This document shows positions 29,034 through 61,791 of a stretch of DNA of 64,000 bases, piece after piece; the first letter of the stretch is position 1, and every line of letters begins with the position of its first letter. This DNA is from Candidatus Cloacimonadales bacterium. GTDB lineage: Bacteria; Cloacimonadota; Cloacimonadia; Cloacimonadales; DAONDQ01. Made by a program: the position numbers and the translations under genes. A model generated the notes under the pieces. That model had not been told where the DNA came from, did no database searches, and worked only from the letters and a program-made list of their open reading frames with translations. The stretch is taken from the NCBI GenBank assembly GCA_963662275.1, contig OY759316.1:2560001-2624000 (forward strand), read 5' to 3'.

Positions 29034-29078
29034 ATATATTAAATCCATTTATTGACAATAAATCTTAAAATATTGAAT

Positions 29079-29567: not shown

Positions 29568-29577
29568 TATTCATTTT

Positions 29578-33098: not shown

Positions 33099-33246
33099 TG
33101 TAGAGTAGGACGCCGTTCCTGCTAAAACGTAAAACATACTTCAGGAGGTTATTATCTTTCAGCATAGCATCCCAAAAGTATGTGGGACAGATGACATGTG
33201 TCATGCTCTAGAATGATATTCAGCAGGAACAGCGTCCTACTCTACA
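33099..33246. repeat. inverted pair of GTAG-type REP hairpins
   Basis: tgtagagtaggacgccgttcctgct (33099-33123) and agcaggaacagcgtcctactctaca (33222-33246), 24/25 inverted match. Confidence 0.75.
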
Positions 33247-33257
33247 AGGAGATATTT

Positions 33258-36857: not shown

Positions 36858-38816
36858 TTACTCAGTTGTAGGCTGTTCCTCAGCATTGAGAATCACAGTG
36901 AAAGTGGAGCCCTCACCAAGTTTGGAGGTGACCATTATCTTGCCCTGCAATTGTTTGACATACGTATTGCAGAGACCGATACCAAATCCAGTACCGCTTT
37001 CGGCGTTTGTTCCCTGTTTCAGCTCGGGAGTTCCCAGGAGGAGGTTTTCCATTCCCCTTGCGGAAATTCCAATACCTGTATCAATGATCTCGATTCGTAC
37101 TTTATCATGCTCTTGGCGGATTCGGACAGTCACAGATCCTTTTTCCGGTGTGAACTTTATGGCATTATGGATGAGATTGCGGACGATCGTGTGCAGGCAG
37201 TTTTTTTCAGCCATTGCCAGGACTTCCGGTTCTCCTTCGTATTTAAGATTCATGGACTTTAGCAGAGCAGAACTTTTATACATATTGATGCAATCATTCA
37301 CGATAGGAACGATGTTGAGCTTCTCAATCTGATTCAGGTAGTGCTGCTGTTTATTACTCCAGGAAAGCATATCGCTCAGTAGGTTACCGGTATTGCTAAG
37401 TGAAAGTGTCAACTCCTTCAGTAAATCATCTGTTTCTTCCTCCGGGAAGTCTTTCATTTGAATCATATTGAGAAACTGAACGGAAGCCAATACCGGTCCT
37501 CTGACATCATGGGAGATCACAGAAAACAGTTTATGCATCAGTGCATTTGAATTTTCCAGATCTGCATTCACCATATTCAGTAGGGTCGATTGTTCAGAAA
37601 TCAATGTATTGAGGTTGGTGAGTTCTATATTTCTTTGCCTGTAGATTTCCGATTGTTCTTCGATCTTTTTTCTATAGTAATCAGCTTCCGACTTTGCGAT
37701 CAGTATCTTGGGATTATCTTCAAGGATAAGAGAATACATTTTCGTAGATTTGTGCAGATATTGATAAGCAAGCTCGAATTTATTCTGCTTTGCGTAGAGT
37801 TTGCTCAGAAACTTACTAGAGCCTTGGATCACATGGAGTGAGTTTATCTCAGTTGCCAGTTCATAAGCCTTCAAACCGTATTCCTCAGCGATAGCTGTTT
37901 CATTTGTATCATAAGATAACCACGCCAGCTTCACAAGCATTCCGGAAAGAGCTATTTTATCATCACCTTCCTCAAACAGGATGCGCGCCTTATGGAAGTA
38001 CTCAAGGGCTGGGGAAAATTTTTTTTGTCTATACAAAATGTTCCCCATGTTGGCATAAGTATTGCCTATTTCAAGGTCGTTGGCAAATGACTTCTTCAAC
38101 TCCAATGATTTATTGGCATAATCCAGTGCCAGATCAAACTTGCTCAAATCATCATAGACCATGCTCAGGTTACTGTAAGCGAAAGATAAGTAGCGGTAAT
38201 TCTTAGTATTCTCAAAACTCAGTGCTGCTTTATTGTATAATTCCAGGGACTTGTCGAATTGCTTCAATTTCATATAAGAACTTGCCAGGTTGAAGAAATC
38301 GGTGGCAGTTTCGGTTTCTCTACCTAATTCTTCATCGATCTTTAAACATTGGTACTGGCATTCCAAGGCTTCCCTGTGACGGTCAGTCATAGAATAGGAA
38401 ATGCCAAGATTGTTGTAGATATCTGCCTGGGTCTTGGTGTCAGTGATTTCCGTAAGAAGATTTATCCAGCCTTCAATTGCTTTCAAATAATCTGATCGGA
38501 TGGCGCTGAGAATACAGATGCCATTCACTGCTTTAACTTTAAAGGATTTGTCATCCACATTCTTACACATCTGGAGGGAAGCTTCATATGCTTTCTTAGA
38601 TCGTTCAAAATCACCGATTTTAGCACAGGCATCACCTAACCCAAGATGCAATTTAAGACACGTTTCCAGTTCCATATTACTGACATCTCCAGCTAGAAGA
38701 TCACTGATATCTGTAATCAGGCTAGAGATTTGCTTCTTATCAAGTTTGTTAATACTCGTACAAGAATCAAGTGCAGCTTTGATTTGTGGACTAGTTTCAA
38801 GAATTTTGTTGTTCAT
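36858..38816 (-). CDS. TPR-repeat sensor histidine kinase
   Basis: TPRs; H-box ISHDVRGP; NLIHNAIKFT, DTGIG, GTGFGIG, GEGSTF. Confidence 0.9.
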   Translation of the reverse strand: MNNKILETSPQIKAALDSCTSINKLDKKQISSLITDISDLLAGDVSNMELETCLKLHLGLGDACAKIGDFERSKKAYEASLQMCKNVDDKSFKVKAVNGICILSAIRSDYLKAIEGWINLLTEITDTKTQADIYNNLGISYSMTDRHREALECQYQCLKIDEELGRETETATDFFNLASSYMKLKQFDKSLELYNKAALSFENTKNYRYLSFAYSNLSMVYDDLSKFDLALDYANKSLELKKSFANDLEIGNTYANMGNILYRQKKFSPALEYFHKARILFEEGDDKIALSGMLVKLAWLSYDTNETAIAEEYGLKAYELATEINSLHVIQGSSKFLSKLYAKQNKFELAYQYLHKSTKMYSLILEDNPKILIAKSEADYYRKKIEEQSEIYRQRNIELTNLNTLISEQSTLLNMVNADLENSNALMHKLFSVISHDVRGPVLASVQFLNMIQMKDFPEEETDDLLKELTLSLSNTGNLLSDMLSWSNKQQHYLNQIEKLNIVPIVNDCINMYKSSALLKSMNLKYEGEPEVLAMAEKNCLHTIVRNLIHNAIKFTPEKGSVTVRIRQEHDKVRIEIIDTGIGISARGMENLLLGTPELKQGTNAESGTGFGIGLCNTYVKQLQGKIMVTSKLGEGSTFTVILNAEEQPTTE

Positions 38817-39399
38817 ATTTTTTACCTTATCAAGAAAATACAAATGACAATATTTAAGTCAAGGGAATTTAATCCAAACAATACAATGCTTCAGCATATT
38901 GAAAGTATACACGACCCAACTGGGGAGCGATAAATACACCAATAAAATGAAAATGCAGTAATCTGTTTTGCGGCATACTGAGAGATAAATAATCTACTCT
39001 CCAATTCTTGCTATCTTTCTCCCTTGTTTATACCTGATCAAATGCAAGTCCAAACAGGAATAAATTGTGGCATATGAGAAGTATCTCTATCAGACAATAT
39101 AACAAAGAAGAAGAATGAGATTAAAAGCTGATTCATAATGTAATTGAGTCCTGAATCTCGATCGTATTTAAAAGACTCTATATTATATTATAGTACTTGT
39201 TAAACTTCAGCAAAGTTTAAGATTCATATGGAAAATCAAGTATTTTATATAACAATAAATACAGTAATAATTTACTTGACTATATTCAAATGTATTTGTA
39301 AAATTGACATGTTTAAGTAAATTATTGAAAAATTCGTAATCAATTGAATTCAAGAATTATACTTATCCAAATTCATAACCCATATCAAGGAGGAAAAAA

Positions 39400-45401: not shown

Positions 45402-46043
45402 TCAATTATTTTTAATCGCTGACATGAATAGATCTAAATACTGATAATAGAATTTCTCTTCATCAAAAACATCCTGGATTTGCTTGGTCTTTTCCGGACT
45501 GAAAGCTACATTCAGGATTGTCCTTAAAGTATATGCAAAGTACTTATCCAGGTAACCAGCATCAATGTTACCCCGTATGCTGTGATCCTGAATTCCTAAT
45601 TCAAATGCATCCCTAACAATGGCAATGATCCTATCGAGAAGATGGTCGAATTGATCATAAAGCTCCAACTCTATTTTACTCTTATCCAGTGAGTTGTAAT
45701 CTTCATACAGATGCAGCTTGAAGTATCCCTGGTTCTGTTTATAGAAGTGATAATACTCTTCACCAAAAGCATAGATTTTAGCATAGCCCGTGCTCTTTCT
45801 ATTCATTTTCTGGCTTAGTAATTCATATCTGCTTCTCATTCCCTCCAAGTGAATATGCATGAAGAGTTCTTCCTTGCTTTTTACGTAAGTGTAGAGTGTT
45901 GATTTGCTGAAACCTGCTGTTAAGGCAACTTCATCAATGGATGTATTTTCGTATCCTTTCTCAAAAAACAGCCTCTTTGCTACTTCGATAATAAAGTCTC
46001 TTTTCAGTTCTGCTTGTCTTTCTTTCAAACTTAACTGTTCCAT
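45402..46043 (-). CDS. TetR/AcrR family transcriptional regulator
   Basis: LFFEKGYENTSIDEVA..AGFSKSTLYTY.KSKEEL HTH; ATG 46043 with GAGG RBS. Confidence 0.9.
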   Translation of the reverse strand: MEQLSLKERQAELKRDFIIEVAKRLFFEKGYENTSIDEVALTAGFSKSTLYTYVKSKEELFMHIHLEGMRSRYELLSQKMNRKSTGYAKIYAFGEEYYHFYKQNQGYFKLHLYEDYNSLDKSKIELELYDQFDHLLDRIIAIVRDAFELGIQDHSIRGNIDAGYLDKYFAYTLRTILNVAFSPEKTKQIQDVFDEEKFYYQYLDLFMSAIKNN

Positions 46044-46082
46044 AATACCTCTATTTTGTGAAATACTACTTACAGTTCTATA

Positions 46083-46108
46083 AATCGTACTCACGGTACG
46101 ATTGTCAA
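46083..46108 (-). promoter_or_regulatory. candidate TetR operator overlapping a TTGACA -35 box
   Basis: Perfect IR AATCGTAC-N5-GTACGATT (46083-46103) abutting TTGACA on the minus strand (46103-46108). Confidence 0.6.
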
Positions 46109-46253: not shown

Positions 46254-48134
46254 ATGGCAGATACTTTAATTGATTCAGTATTATTGGATTTTTTTCTAAC
46301 ATCATCAGATCCCATTATTCCAATGGATAATGTCCATTTGATAAACGAATTCCTGTCAGCAAGCGATAATGAAGAAAAAACGGAATTAGCACAACGTTTA
46401 ATGATTCAAACCATACGTAACCTCGGTTTTGAAACACGCTGTATTGAAAGAATCCTACAGGGATATATCACTTCACTTTTAAAAGTAGATTACGGGTTCC
46501 GCTGGATAACAAAAGACTATCGTTCTCATTTTCTGCATTCAGTCTATAATTATCTTACAGGTTTGTATTTAATGCGACATGATTTTCTCGGGAATATTCT
46601 TTTCTCTAAAATTGATTTTGAAGCTCTCGACAATATTTATACAAGTCCATCTTCTGAGTTACTACATTCATATCCTCGATGTGATTATGAAAAATTCCAC
46701 AAGCGTTGGGCGATTGCAGCATTTTTCCATGATATTTCATATTTATCCCAAATTAGCTACAATGCAATGAATAAGGAAGCTAAGCACAATTTTCAAACGG
46801 ATAATCAAGTGTTTTCTGTAAGTTTACCACATTTTGAAGATAATGTCCATATTGATGAGACATCGCAAATTAAACATCACTTAAGTGCATTAGTGAACTT
46901 AATTCCTCCATATTTGTTACAACATAATGCCCTCGATATTATTAGCAGTCGTATAGCAGGCAGGCTCGGGACATTCGAAAATGCAGATATCAGGAGATCT
47001 TTAAAAAGAATAATTAAAGAGAATTTTAAAGGAGAATATGGATCACACGATATTTTAAGCGGTCTGTTTGCAATTAAGAAATATTACTATGAATTAAATT
47101 CATATTTTAATAGTACAGAAAATCCGATAACTAGTACAGAAAAAATACAAATCATTCAAGAAATGAAGGATTTTACAGATGCAATCAGCAATGCAGCTCT
47201 TCATCATTATGATAAATATACAGTCGGAATTTTCGAACCAACCAAAAAAGAAAAGATTTCCTGGAAAACATTACCATTATTGTATTTACTGATTCTTGTA
47301 GATGAATTACAGATCTGGAATAGAGAATTAGTATGCGAATTCAAACCAATTGTTTATTATGATCTACAAATAAATGATACTGCATTAAGTGATTGGTTTA
47401 AGGATAATTGGACAAATATGCTCCTGCGTTTTGTTCAATCATATCAAAATATTGACACTACAAAGTCAATGACCTTGGAAATACCTTTTACGAAAAATAT
47501 GCTTAAGCAAATAGATTCATTGAGAAGATTAGGTACACATGATCAATGCAAGATTACTAACCTAATTGAAAATTCTAATTATTCTTATAAAATTTATAAT
47601 GGGAAACTATCAATATCTTTTGTAGTTTGTCCAGTATTAGCACAATTAGAGAATGTGATTAATTTTGAATTATCGAATTATGAAGTTTTACGAATTAAGA
47701 GTGTTCTCGAATCCAGTTGGAAAGAATTTAGTGCAAATCATCAGACATATTCACTTTTCATGGAATATCTGATGCTTTTTGAAGATTTGCTTGAGGAGAA
47801 TAATACCAATAAGGCTTATTCTATTAATAAAAACAATCTAATCAATAAATATCTCGTTAAATCTGACAAATTATATACACAATTAATTTCCTCAGATCAA
47901 CTGTGGATACCTATCGAATGCATAACTTTCAATCATATGAGCAGCTTTGATTCTTCCCATTTAGAGCAATTAGAATTAATGTATGATGGTAAAACTACAC
48001 AAAATATACAATCAATCATGGATCATTGTCTCAATGATTTTAAAAAACATATATCAATTAAAGGAATAAATAACCAGGCTCTTATTCATATCGTAGGTAA
48101 GATAAGAAACATTATTCAAAATTTTATAGCATAA
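46254..48134 (+). CDS. HD-domain protein (metal-dependent phosphohydrolase fold) with unknown C-terminal region
   Basis: RSHFLHS...FFHDISY...SHDILS...LHH...LLILVDELQIWNR pattern. Confidence 0.7.
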   Translation: MADTLIDSVLLDFFLTSSDPIIPMDNVHLINEFLSASDNEEKTELAQRLMIQTIRNLGFETRCIERILQGYITSLLKVDYGFRWITKDYRSHFLHSVYNYLTGLYLMRHDFLGNILFSKIDFEALDNIYTSPSSELLHSYPRCDYEKFHKRWAIAAFFHDISYLSQISYNAMNKEAKHNFQTDNQVFSVSLPHFEDNVHIDETSQIKHHLSALVNLIPPYLLQHNALDIISSRIAGRLGTFENADIRRSLKRIIKENFKGEYGSHDILSGLFAIKKYYYELNSYFNSTENPITSTEKIQIIQEMKDFTDAISNAALHHYDKYTVGIFEPTKKEKISWKTLPLLYLLILVDELQIWNRELVCEFKPIVYYDLQINDTALSDWFKDNWTNMLLRFVQSYQNIDTTKSMTLEIPFTKNMLKQIDSLRRLGTHDQCKITNLIENSNYSYKIYNGKLSISFVVCPVLAQLENVINFELSNYEVLRIKSVLESSWKEFSANHQTYSLFMEYLMLFEDLLEENNTNKAYSINKNNLINKYLVKSDKLYTQLISSDQLWIPIECITFNHMSSFDSSHLEQLELMYDGKTTQNIQSIMDHCLNDFKKHISIKGINNQALIHIVGKIRNIIQNFIA

Positions 48135-48149
48135 TTATAGGAGGATAGC

Positions 48150-51100
48150 ATGGGAACTACGAAAATCTTGAAATATAATCAGGAAAGTATAAATTTTCTG
48201 AGAAGCTTGGAAGAGCATGTAAACAAAGCATATACTACTGACAGAAACTCTACAGCGAAGGAAAATACAGGAAAAATCAAGGAACTTCAAAGAAGACATG
48301 TTGGTTGGACTATGATTTCTTTTGAAGACGATTTTGTTACTAAACTTACTGAAATTCGATTAAATCAGGCAGAAACTAATAATGAAGAGGAAAAAATAAT
48401 TAATGAAATTGATCAATATCTATTGATGCTCTCGCTGTTAGATAATATCTTTTATGGCTATCCTTCTGAAAGATCAATGGAAGATTGTAATGGCAAGCCA
48501 ATTAATAATCACCTAAATAATTGGGTAAGAACATTTTATCATCTTACGCTCATAAATAACAAGGCAGGAGATGATGTAGATAAAAAAAAGGCACACGCAT
48601 ATGAAATTCAAATTTTAATCAAGGATTTTATATCTATACCAAAGGATTTTGCCAGTTCCTATTTTGGGTACGATACCGGGATATCAGGTTTAAACCAACT
48701 CTTGATGGGTGGTTTTCTACTCCCTGAGGACAGTACTGCAATGATAACAGTAGATGGTGAGTCTGGTGTTGGTAAAACAACTTTTGTGGTAAATTTAGTC
48801 TGTGCTATTCTGAAAAATTGTGGAGATACTGTTTTTAAACACAATAGAGATACAATAATACACAAACATGCTGAAAGACTTCCCATATTCATCGATTACT
48901 TCATATTAGAACAGTCTTATAATAATATTAAACGATGCATAACCAACTTTAACTTACTACCCATTCTGAAAGATACCCATGACGTGGTAACAGCAAATCC
49001 AATTGATCCAAAGGATACTGTTTATTATGCTGAAGAACTTGATGGTCTTCTTAATATTTGCCAGAAAAACTCAAGAAAACTTGTTATGTCAATTCACCCT
49101 GTCCCTATGTGTTCTGCCGCAGATTTACTTCAACAGGTTCAAAAATGTGAAGAACCTTTTCAAGCAAAAAGCGTACTTGAAGATAGACACATCATTGTAA
49201 TCGATTCAATCAATGCAGTTTTGGATATGGATATTGAGCAATCTAAATGGCGACAGGTATTACAGGCATTACGCTCTATACTTGGTGGAAAGAAATCTAA
49301 ATGCCCAAATGAAGGAAAAAATAAAAAAGAAAACAATACAATATTGATCCTAACTCAAGAAAAAGACCCTTCCAAAAAGGATACAATGGTTGAGTATTTC
49401 TGCGATGTCGTCATGGGGTTTGAAAAGAAAAATATCAACGGTGAATACCTTCGATATATTGAATTGATCGAAAGCCGTTTTCAGGATATGTGTTTCGGAA
49501 GACATCCCTTCCATTTTTCAACTAAAGGGCAAGCTTCCTTTGGGATCTACCCTTCAGCCTCTGCTTTAATGGAATTAATTCCCAACCAATTAAAACAGAT
49601 TCAGCCAGATAAAAAAACACTTGAGTTTGGAATAAAAATCGATGGAATCCTGAAATTCTTTGTGAATACCCATTTGAAGAATAGCGGCATGAAACCATAT
49701 TTTCTTAAGAATTCAGTCAGTAATCTCAATGGCGAAAAAGGATGTAATAAATCTGCATTTTCAAAGTTCTTTACACTAAGTTCATATCGGGATGAAAGAT
49801 GGATATCCATGTCTGAAAGAGCATTTGAAAATGATCTTTACGAAACAGAAGTTACAGATAAGGAGTGCTATCATGAAATGAATTATTCTGAAAAAGAAGC
49901 TGACAAAATATGGAATGAAATAAAAGAAATGAAACCATATCCAAAATCTTATAACCCTGCAAATCCTTCGGAAACTGAAAAGCATTGTAATCCGATAGAT
50001 AAAGCAATCGGGATGATTGTAAAATTTGGGGAAAACTATGAAGAAAATGAACATGATGTGGTTATTGATGCACCTTGGGGAAAAGTAATCATACCAGCAA
50101 ATGCATTAAAAGTAGAACCTAAATTCTGGGGGAGAGTATCAGATGTTATTTGTCATTTTGAAGTAAAAAATTTCTCTGAAGAATACTATCTTGAACAAAT
50201 CATGGATGTCATTCGTGCAATAGAATCATATCATGTATATGAAGAAATCCCTAAAACTTTTGAGAACTTGCTTAGAAGAATGAAATTATCAAGGATATTG
50301 TGGGAGAAGACTAGTTTACGAGAACCAGAAGTAGAAGCAACTCCTAATAATGTGGAATTTAGCCCATCGTTTGCTATTTATAAAGATAAGGACTACATTA
50401 ATGATAATTCTAATGTTAAAGTAGAAGATAGGAATATCTACAATTCATCTATTTTCTTCTATCATGAATCATTACCAATCAAAGTAAGAAGGTTGGTGTT
50501 GGATAATACAGAAAACCTGATCGATATTTTCAAGCAAATCGATGCCCAGGATTTTATCACAACCATTACTCATTTCGGTTTGGCAAAGGGAATTACGATC
50601 TTAATTGTCAATCAAGTCGGTAGGGGATCTCGCAATCAGATCAATGACATTTGCAATGCCATTGCTGATAATATTTTTGAATTCCAGAGAGAATACTTTT
50701 GCGGAGGCTGGTATTCAGTACTTCATATCAAGCGATCATCAAACAGTTGGCATAATCGAATGTACTATAACATTTATAAAAGGCACGATGAGCTTTTGGA
50801 ATTGCAGGATACATTTTCCTTTATATCAAGTTTTCATAATGAACTGAAGGAGTTAATACCAATTCGTCTATTTCTCCCTGGAAAATCACAAGCTGAAATT
50901 GATATGTATGCGAATCTATCTATTGCCTTAAATCCTTCAAATAGAGATTTTCCAGATATGAATTATAGTATTGAAAGAGATAAGAGATTACCATATAAGG
51001 ATTCACACGAACAGTGGCATACATATCTGAAAGAAATGATCATCTACAGTATGACACATCCGCAAGTGGAAGTAATTAAGGCAAGTGATCCATTTACGGA

Positions 51101-52448
51101 CATTTCTATTATCATAGAAGATGAAAGCGTTAAGGATGCTTTGACGATTAGTTGTATTCCCGGTCACTTAATCAAAAGGTATAAGACAAATTTACTCAGG
51201 CTTACAGATTTTATCAATTTCAGTCCTCGGGACAACCAGCTTCCTTTCATTGATAATGCGGTTGATTTCATAGCTGATACTTGGATGGAAATTGGTAATC
51301 TCAATTCTACAACACCCAACGGTAGATTCGGCAAGACTCATTACTACCTTAAACCTTCCTCTCTTCAATTTATCTCTAATGAGTCAAATAGAGACAATTG
51401 TCACTTTTCCTGGATAGAACCTGACCTGCTTTTTAACCCTGTGATTGATATCAGCCATCACAGTGATTCTGATGTTCAAACAGCACATGCTCTTGCCTAT
51501 CCTTTTTATATCAATCCAAGGTTTGATCTGATAATCCGCCATAAAGATGCTAAAGATGCTAAAGATGATAAGGTGAAATATCATTTCGGTTCGACAACGA
51601 CAGAAGATTACTTCACATTTTTCATGGAGCTATTGTTTAAGAATAGGTCTATTAGGAATTCCGTGGCTGAATTTATAAGCAATGCAAGTGAATCAAGTAT
51701 AGGATATCAAATAAATGATATTCCTTTTGCACAGAAAGATACAGAGGATATTACAAACCATACTTTTATTTCCAGAAACTGGTTTTCATCACACCAGCAA
51801 TTTATTGATATTTTAAAAAGCAATTTATCCCCAGAAGAATTTAGTAATATGTGTTTTAAATATATCGTTCCAAAAGTATTCTCTTATTCAACCTGGTATT
51901 TAGGCGTACCACTTAATAGTCCGCGAAAAGACAGAGCCTGTGAGATTATTGTCAAAATGACTGAATATCATGATTTAGCGAATTTCCAACTGAATGGCAT
52001 CGGTATTCAATTGGGAAATTACGCTTTCAGGGATGAATGTTATAAATATTACCCTCATTTAGCATATCATGAAATTCTAACCGGAATAGGGAACATCCAT
52101 TCTTTCCGTGATAATGCAAATCATAATAGTACCGGTATTCCTTTGGCTTCCATGGATTGTTTTTATGAATTAATTACTCCCATTGGAGGTTTGCTGCAAA
52201 ATGTACATCAAATGCTCAAATCCACTATGTCATCTTGTCCTTTGAATAGCGATCTAATATCAAGGATTATTGGTCAAATTACTAATATTTTCACAGCATA
52301 TACCTCGGACAATTTATGTAATGAATGCTATTTCAATTATCTGACAAATATAAATAGAGAAAAGTTATCTCGACGAGCCTGTGATTGTTGGTTAGGTGCG
52401 TTATTCGGTTTAGTACAATCAGATTGTCCCGAGGAAAATAATTGTTAG
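48150..52448 (+). CDS. 1432-aa KaiC/RecA-like double-domain ATPase with a C-terminal region possibly of solute-binding-protein fold
   Basis: TGISGLNQLLMGG, Walker A GESGVGKT, Walker B IIVIDS, EYFCDVV, RYIELIESR..GRHPF; second degenerate domain GEKGCNKS, RRLVLDN, IADNI; GGAGG RBS. Confidence 0.7.
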   Translation: MGTTKILKYNQESINFLRSLEEHVNKAYTTDRNSTAKENTGKIKELQRRHVGWTMISFEDDFVTKLTEIRLNQAETNNEEEKIINEIDQYLLMLSLLDNIFYGYPSERSMEDCNGKPINNHLNNWVRTFYHLTLINNKAGDDVDKKKAHAYEIQILIKDFISIPKDFASSYFGYDTGISGLNQLLMGGFLLPEDSTAMITVDGESGVGKTTFVVNLVCAILKNCGDTVFKHNRDTIIHKHAERLPIFIDYFILEQSYNNIKRCITNFNLLPILKDTHDVVTANPIDPKDTVYYAEELDGLLNICQKNSRKLVMSIHPVPMCSAADLLQQVQKCEEPFQAKSVLEDRHIIVIDSINAVLDMDIEQSKWRQVLQALRSILGGKKSKCPNEGKNKKENNTILILTQEKDPSKKDTMVEYFCDVVMGFEKKNINGEYLRYIELIESRFQDMCFGRHPFHFSTKGQASFGIYPSASALMELIPNQLKQIQPDKKTLEFGIKIDGILKFFVNTHLKNSGMKPYFLKNSVSNLNGEKGCNKSAFSKFFTLSSYRDERWISMSERAFENDLYETEVTDKECYHEMNYSEKEADKIWNEIKEMKPYPKSYNPANPSETEKHCNPIDKAIGMIVKFGENYEENEHDVVIDAPWGKVIIPANALKVEPKFWGRVSDVICHFEVKNFSEEYYLEQIMDVIRAIESYHVYEEIPKTFENLLRRMKLSRILWEKTSLREPEVEATPNNVEFSPSFAIYKDKDYINDNSNVKVEDRNIYNSSIFFYHESLPIKVRRLVLDNTENLIDIFKQIDAQDFITTITHFGLAKGITILIVNQVGRGSRNQINDICNAIADNIFEFQREYFCGGWYSVLHIKRSSNSWHNRMYYNIYKRHDELLELQDTFSFISSFHNELKELIPIRLFLPGKSQAEIDMYANLSIALNPSNRDFPDMNYSIERDKRLPYKDSHEQWHTYLKEMIIYSMTHPQVEVIKASDPFTDISIIIEDESVKDALTISCIPGHLIKRYKTNLLRLTDFINFSPRDNQLPFIDNAVDFIADTWMEIGNLNSTTPNGRFGKTHYYLKPSSLQFISNESNRDNCHFSWIEPDLLFNPVIDISHHSDSDVQTAHALAYPFYINPRFDLIIRHKDAKDAKDDKVKYHFGSTTTEDYFTFFMELLFKNRSIRNSVAEFISNASESSIGYQINDIPFAQKDTEDITNHTFISRNWFSSHQQFIDILKSNLSPEEFSNMCFKYIVPKVFSYSTWYLGVPLNSPRKDRACEIIVKMTEYHDLANFQLNGIGIQLGNYAFRDECYKYYPHLAYHEILTGIGNIHSFRDNANHNSTGIPLASMDCFYELITPIGGLLQNVHQMLKSTMSSCPLNSDLISRIIGQITNIFTAYTSDNLCNECYFNYLTNINREKLSRRACDCWLGALFGLVQSDCPEENNC

Positions 52449-52614: not shown

Positions 52615-53955
52615 CTAATTAAGATGCATGATTTTACGAACCTGAGTTTCCTCTCCTTGTATAGTTTTCAGGAAATAGATACCAGATGCCAGATCTTTTT
52701 CATTAATGTTCAATACCTGGTTGGGAAAAGCATCTACAGATTTAACAAGTTGACCTTTTAAATTATACAGGCGTAGAGTCACACTAGTGTTTGATCTGCT
52801 CTTGATCATCAAATGCAAATCAGTTGTAAAAGGATTTGGAAATACGGTTACTGTCATCCTCTGAACAGAAGGAATATTACTATCATCATTCAATGTTGGA
52901 GGTTGCCATGTAGTGGTAATCCGTTGCTCATATTCAGGGACAGAGTTATTCAAATGATAAGCTGTTTCCACAATTTGGTTACCGTCCTGTGAAACAGCAA
53001 ATTCCTTTGATTGATAATTTACCCAATTCGGATCTGAAAAAGTTTGGGTAGTGATGGTGGATAGATGATTATTTTCATAAGTAAAGAGCAATTGATTTTG
53101 CATTAACCAATCATGGTCATACCAGCTCTGATCAAGAAGATCATCAATCAAGGGAAAACTCTGATTCGATAAAATCCAATCATAAGGGTTATCTGTTTGT
53201 CCAATGATATCGTTGATAGAGCCAACAGACACTTCCAAGCCTTTTCCAAGAGTTATTGGTAAAAGATGGGAAATCAAATTGATGAACGAAACACCGGTTG
53301 TTGCATCGTTCGAGTTATAAACCCTGGTCACATTCTCATAATTTACCCAATTAAGTGAGTCCTGTGATGTCAGAATCAATTCGCTAATTATCCTACCTCG
53401 GTTATCCAGTTCAAAAGAACTCTTTTTAAATATAGAGGTTTGAAAGCCAGGTTTCCAGGTATAAACTGTATCCAAATCCTGGTTATTATAGAGGATTCCC
53501 ATGCGAAGATTATCATTGAATATCCCCGTGAAGATGTCCTTATTTGCCAAATTCAGGGCAACGATTCGATTTTCAGAATCATACGATACTCTTAACCGTT
53601 GCACTGGATTCATTGGGGTAATATACACCATAGCATTCGTTACATAATGATGAGTAGGTTCATAACTGAATACAGTTTTGCTATTAATTATCCAACTACC
53701 GCTATTAATATCCCAGTTGTAGGTCAGAAGACTATCCACCGAATTGGTGACTGTGTCATTATAATAAAATTCATCCCTGGCATTTATATGCCAGCCGAAA
53801 TTATCGATAATCTCACGTACCTGGCTTAAAACCAGAGTATTACGATAATTATCTTTGACACCTGATTTCACAGCGATGCCAGAGAGATTATTACTGATGG
53901 AAAAAAATAATGTAGGAATAACAAGAAAGCTCAAAAAAAGGTAAATATTCTTCAC
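52615..53955 (-). CDS. secreted protein with T9SS-like CTD
   Basis: GTG start with GGAGG RBS; signal peptide; VFPNPF...LYNLKGQLVK...SGIYF...RKIM. Confidence 0.75.
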   Translation of the reverse strand: MKNIYLFLSFLVIPTLFFSISNNLSGIAVKSGVKDNYRNTLVLSQVREIIDNFGWHINARDEFYYNDTVTNSVDSLLTYNWDINSGSWIINSKTVFSYEPTHHYVTNAMVYITPMNPVQRLRVSYDSENRIVALNLANKDIFTGIFNDNLRMGILYNNQDLDTVYTWKPGFQTSIFKKSSFELDNRGRIISELILTSQDSLNWVNYENVTRVYNSNDATTGVSFINLISHLLPITLGKGLEVSVGSINDIIGQTDNPYDWILSNQSFPLIDDLLDQSWYDHDWLMQNQLLFTYENNHLSTITTQTFSDPNWVNYQSKEFAVSQDGNQIVETAYHLNNSVPEYEQRITTTWQPPTLNDDSNIPSVQRMTVTVFPNPFTTDLHLMIKSRSNTSVTLRLYNLKGQLVKSVDAFPNQVLNINEKDLASGIYFLKTIQGEETQVRKIMHLN

Positions 53956-54075
53956 TAATGGTACCTCCAATCTTTAATAGATTGACTTGATTGGAAATAG
54001 TATGAATGTTGTCAAGTAATTAACTATCGCAATATCAAATAAGAAATCATTCGGTTATCGGGAAGTATATTTATT

Positions 54076-54522: not shown

Positions 54523-54601
54523 ATGAAAATCCTTTATCGAGTAAGAAGAAAGCTCTATTATGACGAGGAATAAACGTCAAGAATTGATTCCTCTATGTAA
54601 T

Positions 54602-54629
54602 TTCGAACTTCGAACTTCGAACTTCGTAC
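54602..54629. repeat. heptamer tandem repeat (TTCGAAC)x3 plus one variant
   Basis: Seen directly; degenerate relative at 26397-26440. Confidence 0.8.
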
Positions 54630-54936
54630 TTCCCATGATCCCCGTAGGGAAGAAACATATTAACACTGGATTTTAATCCGGTGATATGATAAATGTGATC
54701 TAAAGGTCTCTCCGGAACGCTGTTTTCAAACGGCTATGCAGGTTTTAAGGCGCATTGCCATGACCCCTGCTCTGCTTGAATTCAATCCGTAGGATGTCAC
54801 TCTGTTAGCCCAGGAAGTCCGTTCTCTGAACTGCAAATCTTCACTCTTCCATCTTCGAACTCCAAATCTTCAATCATCCATTTTCAATCTTCAATCAAAG
54901 CACTCTACTCTCCTCTCTTTCTTGGCTCTACAGAAC

Positions 54937-55080
54937 CATAATTGAACCCCTTAATTTATACCAGTTTCAATCTAGTTTCAATCCTGTTTCATTCCTGTTT
55001 CGTCAAATAGGATAGAGATTGGTAGGGGATTGGTAGGGGATTGGATTTTGATTGGTAGTGTCTTTGGGGTTCGAATTGTG
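54937..55080. repeat. second copy of the 11-bp-unit palindromic element (cf. 9689-9822)
   Basis: ataccagtttcaatctagtttcaatcctgtttcattcctgtttcgtcaaa followed by gattggtaggg units. Confidence 0.75.
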
Positions 55081-55454: not shown

Positions 55455-56201
55455 TTATTCTTTCTTAATGCCATTGCGTTCTCTCATTGACACTTTACCA
55501 TCGATAAAAATAGGATAGGAATCGTGTATAATCCGGTCAAGGATGGCATCGGCAAGGGTTTCCTGACCAATCTTCTCATGCCATCCTCCGGTTCTGAACT
55601 GAGAACAGAAGATCGTTGATGAGTGCTGATGCCTCGCTTCGATAATCTCCAAAAGATCTCTTGCCTCTTGTTCTCTGAGTGGTGTCAGCAGCCATTCATC
55701 AAGTATCAGCAGTTTGATCTGCTTGTATTGTTTTATGACTTTCTTAAAAATACCTTCACCTCTGGCAACTGCCAGGTCATCCAGCAATTCGGGAAGTCGT
55801 ATATATCTGACAGGATAATAGTTCCGGCAGGCTGCTATCCCGAAAGCACAACCCAGCCAGGATTTCCCGTTTCCTGATGCTCCCATAATGATTATATTCC
55901 GATTTTCGCTGATGTAACTGCAGGTTGATAAACGGATAATCTCAGATCGATCCAGCTTTCTGTCATCATGATATTCTACGTCTTCAATACTTGCCTGGCT
56001 GAACTTCAAGTTTGCCTTCTTAATTAGCCTCTGCAGTCTGTTATTTTTGCGTCTGGCCCATTCAGCATCTACGAGCAGACTGAAGCGTTCTTCGAAAAGC
56101 AAATCCTTAAATGCACCATCATGTAATTGCTGGCAGAAAGTATCAGCCATAGCACTCAAATGCATCTCGTGAAGCTTATTGACTGTTGATTGGCTGATCA
56201 T
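55455..56201 (-). CDS. istB: IS21 helper ATPase IstB
   Basis: GASGNGKS, LLILDEW, DAILDRIIH, SMR. Confidence 0.95.
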   Translation of the reverse strand: MISQSTVNKLHEMHLSAMADTFCQQLHDGAFKDLLFEERFSLLVDAEWARRKNNRLQRLIKKANLKFSQASIEDVEYHDDRKLDRSEIIRLSTCSYISENRNIIIMGASGNGKSWLGCAFGIAACRNYYPVRYIRLPELLDDLAVARGEGIFKKVIKQYKQIKLLILDEWLLTPLREQEARDLLEIIEARHQHSSTIFCSQFRTGGWHEKIGQETLADAILDRIIHDSYPIFIDGKVSMRERNGIKKE

Positions 56202-57742
56202 TTATTTTTCCTCCCGTAGTAGTCTGCACCTCTGGTAATACCAAAATCAGAAGCAGGATCATTCTTTGCAGTCTCTGCCGCATTATTGATCTTATCAAAA
56301 CCCGTCTTGAGTATGGTTTGGATATTTTTATAACCGGGATTGGGTGTATAAGATAATGCCCTTTGACATGCACTTTCGAGCCTCTGCACAGAATACCTGT
56401 CAGCTGATTTCAGAAGTGCCATACAGGAACGGTATCCCTGCTGTTCAACACGATAGGATGCCAGAATAGACTTAATTACGATCATCGTATGTTCCCCTAT
56501 TTCCTTTGCCCAGGAGATAAACCTCTCTGCATTCCATTCCTGATATTTCTGATGCTGTTCAGGCATATGTTCAGGGAGTGTCTGATACTGACCGGGATGA
56601 CCAAATTTCCTGACATGGGAAGCGATTCTGTTGGAGTTATAGAAAACCTCGACAACTCTGCTTGTGATGCGTACATCCACATAGTATTTTATGTATTCAT
56701 AAGGAACCGAATAGTACATCTTATCCACGCTTATATGATAATTGAACTGTACTGTTGCCTTTGACCAGGCAGCAAGCTCATATGGCGACAATGACAATGG
56801 AATAAGCATGGGCTGTTCTTCTGCCTGAAAGACACTTTCTCTGCTTCCTTCTTTCTTTTGAAAGGGCTTGGTATTGAACTCTCCCAGTTTTTCCCTGATT
56901 GACATATTGAGTTCATGAAGCGAAAAGAATGTCTGGTTTCGCAAGGCAGCAATGATCCAGGTTGAGATGACTCCAACTGTGCCTTCTGCACTGGGCTTAT
57001 CCTTTGGTCTTCTAACTCTGGCAGGTATTACCGCAGTATCGTAATAAGCAGACATTTCTCCATAGGTTCTGTTGATAACGGGAGTATACCACGACACATG
57101 GTCAACTCCCGTCTTAAGATTATCAGGAACAAGTATTTTAGTAACTCCATTAAAGTACTTGAAGCTATTTATATGAGCCTGAATCCAGCTTTCCATATTC
57201 ATGGAAAGAAAGGCTTCCACATAGGAATAACCACTGTACGGGAGGGTTGCTACAAAAACATAGGCTTTGATCGGTTCACCGGTAATGTTGTTTTTGATGG
57301 CGGCAGTCTGTCCAGCCCAGTCCACTTCCAGCTTTTCTCCTGGTTTGTGTTTTATTCGCATGGTTGCTTTTGTCTTTTGTGAGTAATCATGGTAATGTTT
57401 GCAAAATTGCGTATACTTGTAGGGAATAGCCTGATTATTCCTGCATCCCTCAGAGTATTCATGCCAGAGTAGCGACAGTGTTACACCACTCTTGGCAAGT
57501 TCCTTGTGTATGTGTTCATAATCAGGCATCTTCTGCGGGTTTGACGATAAGTAAGCCGGAAAGAGCTGCTCTTCGATCATCTCATTTGTTAATGTATCAG
57601 GAAGCGGCCATTCAAGGCTCTGGTCTGTTGCCCTTTGAATGATCATCGACACGTTATTGCGGGAACAGGATAAACTCGCCGCTATGCCTCGTCTGCTTAT
57701 TCCCTGGCTGTGTAAGCGAAGGATCTCTCGGTAATTGGTCAT
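56198..57742 (-). CDS. istA: IS21 DDE transposase IstA
   Basis: PGEKLEVDWAG, VPDNLKTGV, PKDKPSAEGTV; ATGA overlap with istB. Confidence 0.95.
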   Translation of the reverse strand: MTNYREILRLHSQGISRRGIAASLSCSRNNVSMIIQRATDQSLEWPLPDTLTNEMIEEQLFPAYLSSNPQKMPDYEHIHKELAKSGVTLSLLWHEYSEGCRNNQAIPYKYTQFCKHYHDYSQKTKATMRIKHKPGEKLEVDWAGQTAAIKNNITGEPIKAYVFVATLPYSGYSYVEAFLSMNMESWIQAHINSFKYFNGVTKILVPDNLKTGVDHVSWYTPVINRTYGEMSAYYDTAVIPARVRRPKDKPSAEGTVGVISTWIIAALRNQTFFSLHELNMSIREKLGEFNTKPFQKKEGSRESVFQAEEQPMLIPLSLSPYELAAWSKATVQFNYHISVDKMYYSVPYEYIKYYVDVRITSRVVEVFYNSNRIASHVRKFGHPGQYQTLPEHMPEQHQKYQEWNAERFISWAKEIGEHTMIVIKSILASYRVEQQGYRSCMALLKSADRYSVQRLESACQRALSYTPNPGYKNIQTILKTGFDKINNAAETAKNDPASDFGITRGADYYGRKNK

Positions 57743-57955
57743 TGCATTGACCTCCATGAATTGATTTACACTGATACAGTGCATTAATTCATGTTGGTTT
57801 TTTCTTTCAAAATAGCAAGGTGGCTCTATTTTAGCGAAGACGTGGCTCTAAAACTCCGTACAAGTGGCTCTCATTTAGAATATTATTCAGTCAGTGATAC
57901 GAGATCAAACCAGATTGCATTAGAATACAAGTTCAGAGCATTGCAGTCTAACTTT

Positions 57956-59601
57956 CAGGCATCCCCCCGTAATTTTCTTAACAATTAGTTTAGAAGCGTT
58001 TATAGTAACAGTCAAACGTTTTGCCGACTTTGAAAATCTGTTTAACATCACTGGTTGGTCAAAACTCCTAAACAGAAACTAGTGCAATTTGTAATTTACG
58101 GTAAACAGAAGAGTTGTGTTTTCACGGTAAAAGCAAAAAGCAGGTATTTTAATAAAACTTATAAAATTATGTGAGAAAATAAGATAACTATATAGAATGT
58201 CCATAATAAAACTGTACAAAAAAAGTGTCTCCGATCTTTTGTTCAAGCACTAAACCAAACCTAAGAAGGAGACACCCATGATTAATAAGAAGCAAATCAA
58301 AACCAGAGAAACCTTGCAAGTAAAATTGTTACAATTTCTGAATAATTTTAGAGAAACGCAATCTCTACCTGTGTATAAGTTCATACAGGATATCTGCTTA
58401 GGGATACTGAAAAGTAAATCTGTAATTATGCTCCAAATAGCGAAACAGCTAAATGAACCAATCACGGTTAAAAAGCTCTGCGAACGTTTCACCCGACATT
58501 TGAATAAGAAGCCCTTAGGAGATAAGCTGCAAGCGGAAATAATTAGGCATCAGTGCCAGGGTTTTGATGATGAGACAGGCATCATAGTTGATGAAAGTGA
58601 TATCGTAAAAACCAAAGCCAAAAAGATGGAGGGATTGCAGAAGGTGCGTGATGGCAGCACCGGCAGTCATGATCAGCAGGGCTATGCATTGCTGAATATA
58701 ATTGCCTATCAGGCAGGCAGTACAGGCTATGAGATAAAACCCATCAGTTCAGACCTGATAGCCCGAAACATGGAACTGGATAGCGTCTCTCAGATCATGG
58801 AAGACCGGCTAGTGGGGATTATTCTTGCAAGTGGTAACCGTGGAGTAACTATTTTCGACCGTGGCTTTGACAACCGAAATCTATTCAGCTTTCTGCATGA
58901 ACATGGACTAAGCTATATCATCAGATCAACAGGTGAAAGAAGTCTTATCATGGATGGCTGCGAACAGAACTTCATGGCAGTGGCAAAGACAGTGAAACTC
59001 GATCATACATTCAATCTGCAAGAATCAGGACAACAGATAAAATGTGGTTTAACGCGGGTGAAGCTGCGTTTGAATCCTTACCCTGTAAAATACCCTGATA
59101 CTACAGATGCCTGGCTTATTGTTGCACAGTTCAGTCCCGATGCTAGTGGCAGACAGGGATATTTCTATTTCATCTGCGACTTTCCGACACAACCTTATCT
59201 GACGGAAAATGCTATCATGGAGAAGGTTTTGCGGATGTATCGCATACGCTGGAAAATCGAAGAGGTCCATCGCCATATCAAGCAGGAATATGGTTGGGAA
59301 AAGATACAACTGAAATCATATACCCGTCTGAAAAACATGAACCAGCTGCTTCTGCTAGCTATGTGCTACCTGTATTCTCTGAAAAAGTATGCTGGCGTAT
59401 TTTTAGATGCCTTCCCAAATCTTATGAAATACTCAAATAAACAGTGGAAGCAGATATATGACTTTGTGTATTATCGTCTGTCAATGCTGATAGAGATGTG
59501 TTTTGCCACCGTGACAAGGTACAGGCTCAATCCTTTTGCAGGAAAATGGCTGGATAATCAGCAGCTAAAAATTCCTGGTTTGAAAAACGGGGGGATGTGA
59601 G
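57956..59601 (+). mobile_element. IS4-family insertion sequence with 11-bp target-site duplication AGTCTAACTTT
   Basis: TIR core catccccccgt at both ends (caggcatccccccgt / acggggggatgtgag); TSD at 57945-57955 and 59602-59612. Confidence 0.9.
58278..59600 (+). CDS. IS4-family DDE transposase
   Basis: VDESD, FDRGF and the Y-2-R-3-E-6-K signature YRIRWKIEEVHRHIK. Confidence 0.9.
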   Translation: MINKKQIKTRETLQVKLLQFLNNFRETQSLPVYKFIQDICLGILKSKSVIMLQIAKQLNEPITVKKLCERFTRHLNKKPLGDKLQAEIIRHQCQGFDDETGIIVDESDIVKTKAKKMEGLQKVRDGSTGSHDQQGYALLNIIAYQAGSTGYEIKPISSDLIARNMELDSVSQIMEDRLVGIILASGNRGVTIFDRGFDNRNLFSFLHEHGLSYIIRSTGERSLIMDGCEQNFMAVAKTVKLDHTFNLQESGQQIKCGLTRVKLRLNPYPVKYPDTTDAWLIVAQFSPDASGRQGYFYFICDFPTQPYLTENAIMEKVLRMYRIRWKIEEVHRHIKQEYGWEKIQLKSYTRLKNMNQLLLLAMCYLYSLKKYAGVFLDAFPNLMKYSNKQWKQIYDFVYYRLSMLIEMCFATVTRYRLNPFAGKWLDNQQLKIPGLKNGGM

Positions 59602-59837: not shown

Positions 59838-59928
59838 AGTAGGATCGGAATCCTACTCCATGAAAAGATTTAAGTAGGAACGGCGTCCTACTCTACGAGA
59901 AGACAGCAAGAACGGCGTCTTGCTTTAC
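59838..59928. repeat. cluster of three REP-like hairpins, same family as 33099-33246
   Basis: agtaggatcggaatcctact; agtaggaacggcgtcctactctac; agcaagaacggcgtcttgctttac. Confidence 0.7.
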
Positions 59929-59946
59929 AACGCAATAAGAGGTAAC

Positions 59947-61791
59947 ATGTCCGAATTGCAGAAGCCTGAGATCAAGCTGGAAGTAAGGAAGAACCTGAAG
60001 AAGCTTCTCCCCTATATCTGGAAGGACAAGTACCTTTTCCTCTTCGGGCTTATCGCCATGATCATCACTTCCGGCATGAGACTTTTAGACCCTCTTATCC
60101 TGGCTCATATCATTGATTACAGCGTTCCCAAGCACAACATGAAGGATATGTTCACCTATGCCGGATACTTCATTGGTGTGATAGCCTTATCAGGCTTACT
60201 ATCCTATATCCAGATCATCCTGCTCTCTCGATTGGGAATCAAGATCATTACTGAATTCAAAGGGCATATCTTTGATCATTTATTAAAGCTGCCAATTTCC
60301 TATTTTGATAAGAACGCCGTCGGTGAGATCATCGCCCGTGTAGAAAGTGACAGTGAACGCGTTCGCATGCTCTTCACAGACTTGTCCGTAGCGATATTGG
60401 GTAATATCATTTTCTTCATTGGTATCTTCAGTGTGCTGCTTGTTAAGCAATGGAAAATCACATCACAATTGATTGTACCACTTATCGTTATCATCGTTCT
60501 TTATTCATTTGTCATTCGATATTTGAATAAGTTCTATAAGCGTTCTCGTGTCCTAAATGCGGATATCACTGCCAAGCTGACAGAGTTTTTACAGGGTATG
60601 CCCATTATCCAACTGTTCAATCAGCAGAAGCGAATTACTGCAAATTTATTCAAATCCAGCAACGAAAAGAAGGATGTGGATATCAAGGCTTCTTTTGTGG
60701 AATATGGCTTCCAAGGGTTCTTTTTCTTCGTTTTTAACATACTTTTCATGATACTCATCATCTTACTCTCGGCACCGAAGATCATCGCCCATACTATGAC
60801 GATTGGAACTCTCATCGTGTTTACGCAATATATCGCCCGTGTGATCTGGCCTCTGATGAATATCTCGGAGAACATCACCAACATCCAGAGAGCTTTTGTT
60901 TCCCTGCAGCGTATCTTCTCCATTACTGAATTGAAGACAGAATATGAAACCCTGGAAGGGAATGCAGAGCCGGTCTTCAATCATTCAATCGAATTCAGGA
61001 ATGTCTGGTTTGCCTATGATGAAAATGAATGGGTACTGCAGGATGTGAGCTTCTTCATTCCCAAAGGCGGAAAGATTGCCCTCGTTGGAGCTTCCGGTAG
61101 CGGTAAGACAACCACAATTAGTCTTATCTGCGGTTTCTACCGAATCCAGAAAGGTGAAATTCTGATTGATGGTGTGAATCTCTACAGCCTGGATATGAAA
61201 AAATGGAGACAGAAACTGGGATTGATTCTCCAGGATATCTATCTCTTCCCGGGTAACATTTTAGAGAATGTACGCATCTACAATGATGAGATAGATCAGT
61301 TGCAGGTTGATAAGGCAATTCGATTAGTGCAGGCACAGGACTTTGTGAACCAACTGCCACATGGCTTATACTCAGAGCTGGCTGAAAGAGGACAGAATAT
61401 CTCTCAGGGAGAAAAGCAGCTTATAAGCTTTGCTAGGGCGATTTGCTTTGAACCGGAAGTCGTCATTATGGACGAAGCAACTGCTTCCATTGACCAGCTC
61501 ACGGAATCCCGCATCCAGAATTCATTGCACACTATGCTGGAAGACAAAACGGCTATTATCGTGGCGCACCGGCTTGCTTCCATACTGGATTCAGATGAAA
61601 TACTCATGTTTCATGAGGGTAAGATCATCCATCGGGGAAATCACAATGAATTGTTAGAAACATCGATAGAGTATAAAAGACTTGTAGAATTGCAGTTCTT
61701 ATCAAATACAAATGAAGAGAGTTCGCCAAACCAAGAAGAATTGGCGAAGCGGAATTCGCCAAACCGAGAAGAGGATGCCAGCCATGAATGA
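59947..61791 (+). CDS. ABC exporter, fused permease/ATPase (MdlB-like half)
   Basis: TM domain; GASGSGKT, ISQGEKQ, MDEAT, AHRL. Confidence 0.92.
   Translation: MSELQKPEIKLEVRKNLKKLLPYIWKDKYLFLFGLIAMIITSGMRLLDPLILAHIIDYSVPKHNMKDMFTYAGYFIGVIALSGLLSYIQIILLSRLGIKIITEFKGHIFDHLLKLPISYFDKNAVGEIIARVESDSERVRMLFTDLSVAILGNIIFFIGIFSVLLVKQWKITSQLIVPLIVIIVLYSFVIRYLNKFYKRSRVLNADITAKLTEFLQGMPIIQLFNQQKRITANLFKSSNEKKDVDIKASFVEYGFQGFFFFVFNILFMILIILLSAPKIIAHTMTIGTLIVFTQYIARVIWPLMNISENITNIQRAFVSLQRIFSITELKTEYETLEGNAEPVFNHSIEFRNVWFAYDENEWVLQDVSFFIPKGGKIALVGASGSGKTTTISLICGFYRIQKGEILIDGVNLYSLDMKKWRQKLGLILQDIYLFPGNILENVRIYNDEIDQLQVDKAIRLVQAQDFVNQLPHGLYSELAERGQNISQGEKQLISFARAICFEPEVVIMDEATASIDQLTESRIQNSLHTMLEDKTAIIVAHRLASILDSDEILMFHEGKIIHRGNHNELLETSIEYKRLVELQFLSNTNEESSPNQEELAKRNSPNREEDASHE

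Follow-up and report, generated by a model that had tools for sequence, protein, structure and literature searches.

Background

Solute-binding proteins (SBPs) are classical receptors of the extracytoplasmic space; for KaiC-type ATPases, roles as clocks are known and roles as signalling hubs have been proposed. In defence systems of the sensor-NTPase-effector type (STAND/Avs-type), a sensor domain works together with a P-loop NTPase that oligomerises and an effector with hydrolytic activity. The present work deals with two co-oriented genes, termed A and B, that reside in a 64,000-nt stretch of DNA (the window, i.e., the whole stretch that was analysed) from Candidatus Cloacimonadales bacterium (assembly GCA_963662275.1, contig OY759316.1, positions 2,560,001-2,624,000, forward strand; the source genome is labelled G000). 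In protein B, a helical region at the N-terminus was found to be followed by an intact KaiC/RecA-type ATPase domain, a degenerate KaiC-like domain and a MalE-like C-terminus. Genes A and B together form a rare two-gene cassette that is self-contained and horizontally mobile, being present in some Cloacimonadota genomes and missing from relatives of these. The pair is tentatively taken to be a ligand-gated ATPase controlling an HD effector, serving as a conflict or defence cassette rather than in housekeeping, a reading in which we place somewhat less than even confidence. The following features were assigned within the window (ORF, open reading frame; AF2, AlphaFold2; pLDDT, predicted local distance difference test):

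46254..48134, plus strand: gene A (P0001), ORF of 626 aa, HD-like phosphohydrolase partner
46317..47354, plus strand: probable HD-superfamily-like catalytic domain of A, residues ~22-367 (invariant residues, AF2, VIA-align)
47355..48131, plus strand: variable C-terminus of A, residues 368-626, indels among homologues, no fold assignable (low pLDDT)
48139..48144, plus strand: AGGAGG ribosome-binding site of B, 5 nt 5' of the B ATG, within the 15-bp spacer
48150..52448, plus strand: gene B (P0002), ORF of 1432 aa, cytoplasmic multidomain KaiC-type ATPase
48150..48644, plus strand: N-terminal helical region of B, residues 1-165 (family-conserved; no Pfam match)
48645..49619, plus strand: KaiC/RecA-type ATPase domain I of B, residues ~166-490 (Pfam PF06745)
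49620..50840, plus strand: KaiC-like domain II of B with large inserts, residues ~491-897 (hhalign, PDB profile)
50841..52445, plus strand: MalE-like type II solute-binding-protein domain of B, residues 898-1432, with a Cys-rich tail (AF2 and Foldseek)

Comparison with KaiC (PDB 1tf7, 2gbl, 7s65) and with KaiC-like double-domain ATPases identified the tandem RecA-like domains as the common element, whereby domain I of B shares both Walker motifs (A and B), the ESRFQ..GRHPF motif and a glutamate that follows strand 2, and domain II aligns to residues 368-467 of KaiC CII. B differs from KaiC in its degenerate domain II Walker A, about 200 residues of inserts, an extra N-terminal region and a 535-aa solute-binding domain, and furthermore in having an obligatory HD-like partner gene and no KaiB in the genome. 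With the MalE-like SBPs (T. maritima MalE3, 6dtq; a sophoro-oligosaccharide-binding protein, 5ysf; S. pyogenes SPs0871, 9kha) the C-terminus of B shares the two-lobe periplasmic-binding-protein (PBP) fold, but the B domain is cytoplasmic and attached C-terminally to an ATPase, comes without signal peptide, lipobox or ATP-binding-cassette (ABC) importer, and possesses a beta-rich insert and the Cys-rich tail in the absence of a Pfam SBP match. Protein A has the helical fold (Z 9.8-5.5) and the H...HD...H...H...D pattern in common with HD phosphohydrolases (YhaM, class I phosphodiesterases, HD-GYP, SpoT/Rel, SAMHD1, Cas3 HD), yet it has no hidden-Markov-model (HMM) or profile similarity to these and is set apart by a domain of ~345 aa, an insert of ~100 aa after the HD dyad and a 260-aa tail. 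The logic of the STAND/Avs-type systems may match that of A-B, including the patchy mobile cassette, whereas A-B involves a RecA/KaiC-class NTPase, an effector encoded by a separate gene and a sensor of the solute-binding fold; nSTAND Pfam matches of B are weak, restricted to the P-loop and below the cut-off. An SBP-type sensor domain is believed to be new to modules made up of a KaiC-like ATPase and an effector.

Domain architecture of protein B

The C-terminus of B, which the preliminary description had likened to solute-binding proteins on account of the motifs AYPFYINP (residues 1116-1123) and STWYLGVP (1247-1254), was modelled with AF2 (residues 898-1432, 535 aa, 22-row alignment), resulting in a pLDDT of 82 and a predicted template modelling (pTM) score of 0.88. 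Foldseek comparison of this model with the PDB gave at least 500 matches at E<=1e-3, the top rows being MalE-like carbohydrate SBPs (E 1e-9 to 5e-7, probability 1.00), among them 9kha (1.2e-9), MalE3 6dtq and 5ysf, for which template modelling (TM) scores of 0.53-0.63 on target length and 8-12% identity were obtained. ESM Atlas independently points to SBP_bac_8/SBP_bac_1 clusters. As the model is confident and its Foldseek matches are MalE-like, the guess of a PBP fold is correct at the fold level; no Pfam SBP family was matched by B at E<=1 or by 14 of its relatives at E<=0.01. Features of SBP export were not found, i.e., the domain is C-terminal, the protein has no hydrophobic segment and the nearby ABC genes encode exporter-type half-transporters. 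A membrane-like hydrophobic stretch is absent from both A and B (highest 19-residue Kyte-Doolittle mean 1.63), which agrees with the earlier view that the system has no signal peptide and is cytoplasmic.

The solute-binding domain is ~140 residues bigger than typical SBPs, including its beta-rich insert, and its Cys-rich tail comprises CNEC (1390-1393), CDC (1411-1413), C1426 and C1432. The four cysteines C1264, C1337, C1390 and C1393 (positions 774, 847, 900 and 903 of alignment A3) do not vary within the close family, and thiaminase I is among the fold matches (Foldseek rank 20; ESM Atlas). The unusual size with the beta-rich insert, the four cysteines and the thiaminase I match would all suit a rather improbable explanation, according to which the PBP-fold domain is no sensor and serves instead as a protein- or polymer-binding scaffold or as an enzyme (as in thiaminase I), its Cys tail binds metal, B is a mechanical ATPase and A cuts the macromolecule on which B acts. 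Speaking for a ligand-binding cleft, the residues E1160, R1209, W1211 and W1249, which are conserved in this domain across the wide family, are by our reading of the kind that line SBP clefts.

Domain I had been described as an intact KaiC-type domain, and its match to PF06745 is indeed above the curated cut-off (E 2.8e-12, 47 bits as compared to 26.6), the remaining Pfam matches of B being sub-threshold P-loop cross-matches. All motifs quoted in the preliminary description were located in A and B at defined residues, which for domain I are Walker A GESGVGKT (203-210), E254-Q255, Walker B IIVIDS (348-353), EYFCD (415-419) and ESRFQ..GRHPF (441-454); GESGVGKT, IIVIDS and E254, the acidic catalytic residue after strand 2, are kept across 15 aligned relatives. 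Weak PDB matches of domain I were obtained with the KaiC-like proteins PH0186 and SSO2452, with Rad55 and with UvsX. Domain II holds the degenerate Walker A GEKGCNKS (528-535), FGENYEE (626-632) and the Walker-B-like RRLVLDN (780-786), and in close relatives its Walker A reads G-[ED]-[KR]-G-C-[NH]-K-[ST], the Walker A glycine being replaced. Its assignment as a degenerate second KaiC domain with inserts was borne out by hhalign, which aligned the domain I and domain II profiles with 95.5% and E 1.4e-8, and by the comparison of the domain II profile with the PDB, where KaiC CII (residues 368-467) was matched weakly (E 0.03) and the top matches are nearly all KaiC. Within the N-terminal helical region, L7, Y9, L17, Y28, F129, Y130 and D159 are invariant (alignment A1); complex prediction for A (626 aa) with B residues 1-170 yielded a score of 0.01 as compared to a mark of 0.32, a value that speaks neither for nor against binding. 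KaiB (PF07689) has 0 matches in the 99.97%-complete single-contig genome, so that the reported absence of kaiB from the vicinity extends to the entire genome (KaiA was not searched for), and the NCBIfam KaiC equivalog scored 28.7 bits on B, its cut-off being 408. Given the missing KaiB and the equivalog score far below cut-off, B is not a component of a Kai clock.

Protein A as a probable, divergent HD-like enzyme

Alignment of six A sequences (alignment A2, 24-66% identical) revealed invariant residues H92, H95, H159-D160, H265, D309, H317, D350-E351, Q353, W355 and R357, several of which reside in the motifs YRSHFLHS (89-96), FFHD (157-160) and DELQ (350-353). The invariant H..H/HD/H/H/D set is what we take to be the pattern of a metal-binding HD site, its histidines and aspartates being putative metal ligands. 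The AF2 model of A has a mean pLDDT of 62, with residues 1-360 mostly above 60 per 10-residue block (four blocks at 34-52) and values below 50 from residue 511 onward; in the C-terminal region the paralogue P0007 carries an insert of ~100 aa. When the model was compared by VIA-align, the top rows covered residues 22-367 with Z 9.8-5.5, and at least 40 of the 50 listed rows belong to the HD superfamily by title. Matches include YhaM (9h3f, Z 9.8), class I phosphodiesterases (Z 8.3-7.2), HD-GYP, PPX/GppA, SpoT/Rel, SAMHD1, Cas3, PhnZ and YqeK.

Several results limit the HD assignment of A. The Z values do not exceed 9.8 and lie within the range (<~13) that the tool calls unspecific for helical proteins, and A has no match in Pfam, NCBIfam, PADLOC or PHROGs. 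No HD family was matched at E<=10 by any of the six A-family members, and a genome scan with PF01966 identified 13 places, none of them in A or its paralogue. Likewise, hhalign of the A HD region against the profile of these 13 PF01966 domains gave 1.8%, the reversed control giving 1.1%. Foldseek with the A model returned nothing at E<=1e-3, and sequence comparison of A with the PDB gave noise only (troponin T, eL31). Searches with the single protein and with the A2 profile recovered only A and its paralogue among the best 8000 candidates, which does not prove that the family is rare. Because the Z values fall into the range that is unspecific for helical proteins, the HD assignment is rated probable and not proven. 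From the earlier HD claim for A, the H..H/HD/H/D-E-x-Q residues stood as invariant and HD-type fold matches of middling Z were added, while support from HMM or profile searches was not obtained. With good confidence A is considered an HD-superfamily member, at best a very divergent one, and a probable metal-dependent phosphohydrolase.

The A-B pair as a conserved unit

The gene layout given earlier (a co-oriented pair 15 bp apart, in AT-rich sequence, with flanking genes on the opposite strand) agrees with coordinates, flanks and base composition. The TAA stop codon of A is located at 48132-48134 and the ATG of B at 48150, A directly 5' of B being an arrangement for coupled translation. On the strand opposite to A-B, a TetR-family gene (45402-46094) forms the 5' flank and the gene of a protein with a type IX secretion system (T9SS) tail (52615-53970) the 3' flank. 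The GC content of the A-B module amounts to 32.9% as compared to 39.05% for the genome (sd 2.1, 6.2-kb windows), i.e., 3 SD below the mean and at the 0.48th percentile.

Full-length homologues occur elsewhere, hence A and B are real genes. Altogether seven distinct pairs were compared, namely those of the window, of a paralogous locus in the same genome, of L006 (G052), of L007 (G048, identical to L009), of L010 (99.9% identical to L011), of L008 and of G121, where L006 and L007 are loci from Cloacimonadota metagenome-assembled genomes (MAGs), L008-L011 are metagenome loci and G121 derives from a phylum scan. In 7/7 of these pairs the A homologue is co-oriented with B and located immediately 5' of it, and the spacing varies between a gap of 15 nt and an overlap of 4 nt (ATGA-type) or more; the two-gene module proposed in the preliminary description is therewith recovered as co-occurring homologues at every locus. 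Full-length B homologues share 28-65% identity, and the identity matrices of A and of B yield the same groupings. The second, divergent copy in G000 (C1:1125131-1131510; L002, L004, L012, L013) encodes an A of 723 aa (66-68% identical) and a B of 1401 aa (62-65%), resides at the 2.7th GC percentile and is flanked by a cluster of electron-transfer-flavoprotein (ETF)/Fe-S, amidohydrolase and radical-SAM genes and by a giant (>4165 aa) CHB_HEX_C repeat protein. L008 falls into the clade of P0005, P0006 and P0011, one member of which carries the NCBI label Aminicenantes, so that the pair extends beyond a single phylum. The A-B pair is inherited, duplicated, lost and inserted as one unit.

This tight genetic coupling, together with the fact that a hydrolase is combined with a binding domain, is what an idea of a feedback loop can draw upon, in which the HD enzyme would make or remove the very ligand sensed by the SBP domain. 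The nearest structural relatives of that domain bind oligosaccharides, thiamin or iron and not phosphoesters, and no finding links the pocket of B with the substrate of A, which leaves the feedback loop with little probability.

Beyond the close relatives, a profile spanning KaiC II and the SBP domain was compared with 1.84 billion cluster representatives and identified 28 proteins at E<=1e-3. A distant clade of ~1160-1260 aa (P0021, P0023-P0027, P0029, P0031 and P0032) shows the same order of parts, from the N-terminal helical region via KaiC I and KaiC II to a C-terminal domain ending in CxxC. The domain II Walker A is degenerate in the majority of members, others having an intact one (e.g., P0025 with GTSGCGKT). 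The KaiC PF06745 cut-off is exceeded by 13/14 scanned B relatives, and 0/14 have a Pfam SBP match; the source annotation of the distant relatives reads at most "KaiC/GvpD/RAD55 family RecA-like ATPase". When P0025 was compared with plasmids, only ordinary double-domain KaiC-like genes of ~480 aa were found, aligned over the KaiC region. P0006 (913 aa) and P0013 (816 aa) hint at a B that is split into two genes in another clade.

Distribution, mobility and divergence

Intact A-B pairs were identified in 4/232 Cloacimonadota species genomes (G000, G048, G052 and G121) and B-only pieces in two further ones (G026 and G006), presence and absence being subject to the caveat that MAGs often miss accessory DNA and that kin are not independent. 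In G026 (L024, G026:C28:27841-29871) a lone ORF of 660 aa represents the C-terminal half of KaiC II and the SBP domain; a TGA immediately precedes it and an A gene is missing. In G006 (L026, G006:C63:75535-75801) a 123-aa C-terminal fragment of B is left; both are probably decaying remnants. Both A and B are absent from G100, a genome of the same genus as G000 (99% complete, 240 contigs), and the 20 kb 5' of the cassette in the window, which include AbiEii and MNT-type toxin-antitoxin genes, have no DNA-level counterpart in it. The B family is rare, with 4 matches among 5.8 billion sequences.

The congeners G048 and G052 document both an occupied and an empty site. In G048 a 6.6-kb cassette has a T9SS gene of 1119 aa on one side and an ABC exporter pair, convergent to it, on the other. 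Only 63 bp separate the orthologues of the T9SS gene (52% identity) and the ABC gene (78-80%) in G052, which carries a divergent cassette at another place. Within this genus B is 50% and A 29% identical as compared to 80% for the adjacent ABC protein; between families the values are 34% for B and 23% for A as compared to 56-58% for ABC and 73% for RecA.

Functional assignment and competing explanations

A conflict role (e.g., anti-phage or abortive infection) is considered the most likely one, given the patchy occurrence, fast evolution, foreign base composition and independent mobility of the cassette. Of the functions considered, conflict or defence fits this population-genetic behaviour best (patchy, mobile, AT-rich, fast-evolving, duplicated and with decaying remnants), an assignment that we hold at just under an even chance. 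The proposed mechanism assumes that B assembles into a KaiC-like ring and that the SBP domain would close on a cytoplasmic small molecule (e.g., sugar-like or nucleotide-derived). Ligand closure would gate ATP turnover by domain I via the pseudo-ATPase domain II, and the resulting ATPase state would license or restrain the HD enzyme A, which might hydrolyse a phosphoester, be it nucleic acid, a nucleotide or a cyclic nucleotide. The more specific proposal of a new conflict-system family, in which a KaiC-type ring ATPase with a cytosolic MalE-like domain as its trigger sensor would license a nuclease or phosphodiesterase of divergent HD type, is regarded as possible and still rather unlikely; its classes of sensor and NTPase would both be new among described defence systems.

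A number of findings weigh against a defence function. Among the 59 neighbouring ORFs from seven stretches, 0/59 belong to a recognised defence system adjoining the cassette; the seven stretches represent six loci, as L012 and L013 both derive from the paralogue locus, and a sample of this size does not allow enrichment to be judged. The only PADLOC candidates, PDC-S01 and PDC-S09, are at least 14.5 kb (~15-17 kb) away and are accompanied by generic ABC, tetratricopeptide-repeat (TPR) and IstB cross-hits. The neighbours are T9SS cargo, peptidases, GNAT, TetR, ETF/Fe-S, radical SAM, dNK, SRAP, RecA and a response regulator. No model of PADLOC-DB 2.0.0 was matched, the best values being mad8 at E 0.0056 (B, P-loop only) and PDC-M49B at E 0.34 (A). 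Homologues of B were not found on plasmids or phages (tblastn) or on viral contigs, and to our knowledge there is no precedent for a solute-binding domain as a defence sensor. The survey of gene neighbourhoods that the preliminary description had suggested for its anti-phage proposal did not point to defence islands at the six loci. Its statement that the module is undescribed was upheld, as PADLOC, Pfam, NCBIfam, PHROGs and literature searches were all negative for a characterised system, the latter turning up no description of a KaiC-SBP fusion or of the A-B pair.

The same neighbourhood data bear on the main competing explanation, in which A-B is a signalling module unrelated to defence, with the KaiC-like hub reporting a cytoplasmic metabolite via its SBP domain and the HD protein acting as a second-messenger phosphodiesterase (PDE/HD-GYP-like). 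The neighbours being metabolic, secreted or regulatory and not defence genes would suit this explanation, as would the response-regulator gene beside the L008 copy and the many cyclic-nucleotide phosphodiesterases and HD-GYP enzymes among the best structural matches of A. In addition, KaiC-like ATPases have been proposed as signalling hubs (Makarova et al. 2017, as cited in PMC13700489). At the loci examined, the pair has no conserved neighbour that would make a messenger (cyclase, GGDEF or other), and the patchiness, the empty site within a genus, the low GC content and the fast divergence would be odd for a core pathway, although accessory signalling genes can be patchy too. Taken together, the signalling module is judged a serious candidate with a rather low probability of its own.

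Genomic surroundings of the cassette

A toxin-antitoxin-like cluster is located at window positions 27230-31750, at least 14.5 kb (~15-19 kb) 5' of the cassette, comprising DUF6922 and AbiEii at 27230-28131, two NTP_transf_2/MNT-like genes (29082-29390 and 31451-31750; PADLOC PDC-S09) and an AAA_14/DUF4143 ATPase (29581-30936; PADLOC PDC-S01, E 2e-155). It is followed at 33198-36794 by the gene of a protein of 1198 aa whose N-terminus is cyclase-like (weak PADLOC PycC match, E 3e-6) and which further contains an AAA_16 ATPase domain and many TPR repeats, after which a TPR-histidine kinase gene is encoded on the opposite strand (36858-38843).

On the other side of the cassette, an IS21 insertion sequence (istA/istB) and an IS4-family transposase are found 3-6 kb 3' of it (window 55455-59600), just before a heterodimeric ABC exporter pair (window 59920-63538), orthologues of which are located at L007:11585-15098 and L045:5755-9259. 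ABC exporter genes adjoin the cassette in G048 and L010 and are 7.5 kb away in the window, on the other side and strand; the chance of an ABC pair within 8 kb was roughly estimated to be ~0.4% for a 4.4-Mb genome. This recurring proximity may go back to an ancestral arrangement or to a hot spot for insertion. That the cassette and the ABC exporter pair are functionally linked was considered and rejected as the leading explanation, as the transporter is of the exporter type and side and strand differ between G000 and G048; a link is countered further by the lack of the ABC pair beside the L006 copy and the paralogue.

Another IS21 is located directly after RadA (G000:C1:2507438-2509736; L042:2439-4736). 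In G100 the ABC pair comes immediately after RadA, and in G000 ~113 kb lie between the two. The idea that a "113-kb island" had been inserted was rejected, since the G000 segment holds pyrBCD, ribH, nusB, aroA, rpsA and cmk and is bounded by IS21. As RadA and the ABC pair are contiguous in G100 and housekeeping as well as accessory genes lie between them in G000, the ~113 kb look like an IS21-bounded rearranged segment.

Further observations concern repeated sequences. At G000:C1 ~2535160-2553580 (L043:12163-18541, L044:917-12580) nine tandem paralogous FG-GAP repeat proteins of ~532-567 aa are encoded, all on the minus strand and each with a T9SS sorting tail. Sequences of ~35-100 nt at window ~26550-26630 and 54595-55068 are 70-94% identical to sequences on many G100 contigs (8 and 24 matches, respectively) and look like dispersed small repeats. 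Minor tandem repeats with units of 7, 11 and 29 nt were found at 54602-55044.

Implications

A cytoplasmic KaiC-SBP fusion that is always paired with a divergent HD enzyme and travels with it as a cassette would newly couple small-molecule recognition to an ATP-driven switch. If the pair is a defence system, it would add to bacterial immunity a new sensor principle, i.e., the recognition of a metabolite or infection-derived small molecule, and a new class of NTPase. If instead A-B is a signalling device, it would provide a tractable example of what the KaiC-like "hubs" of bacteria read and control. Under either reading, a fold is now assigned to two large sequence stretches that are not annotated by any library.

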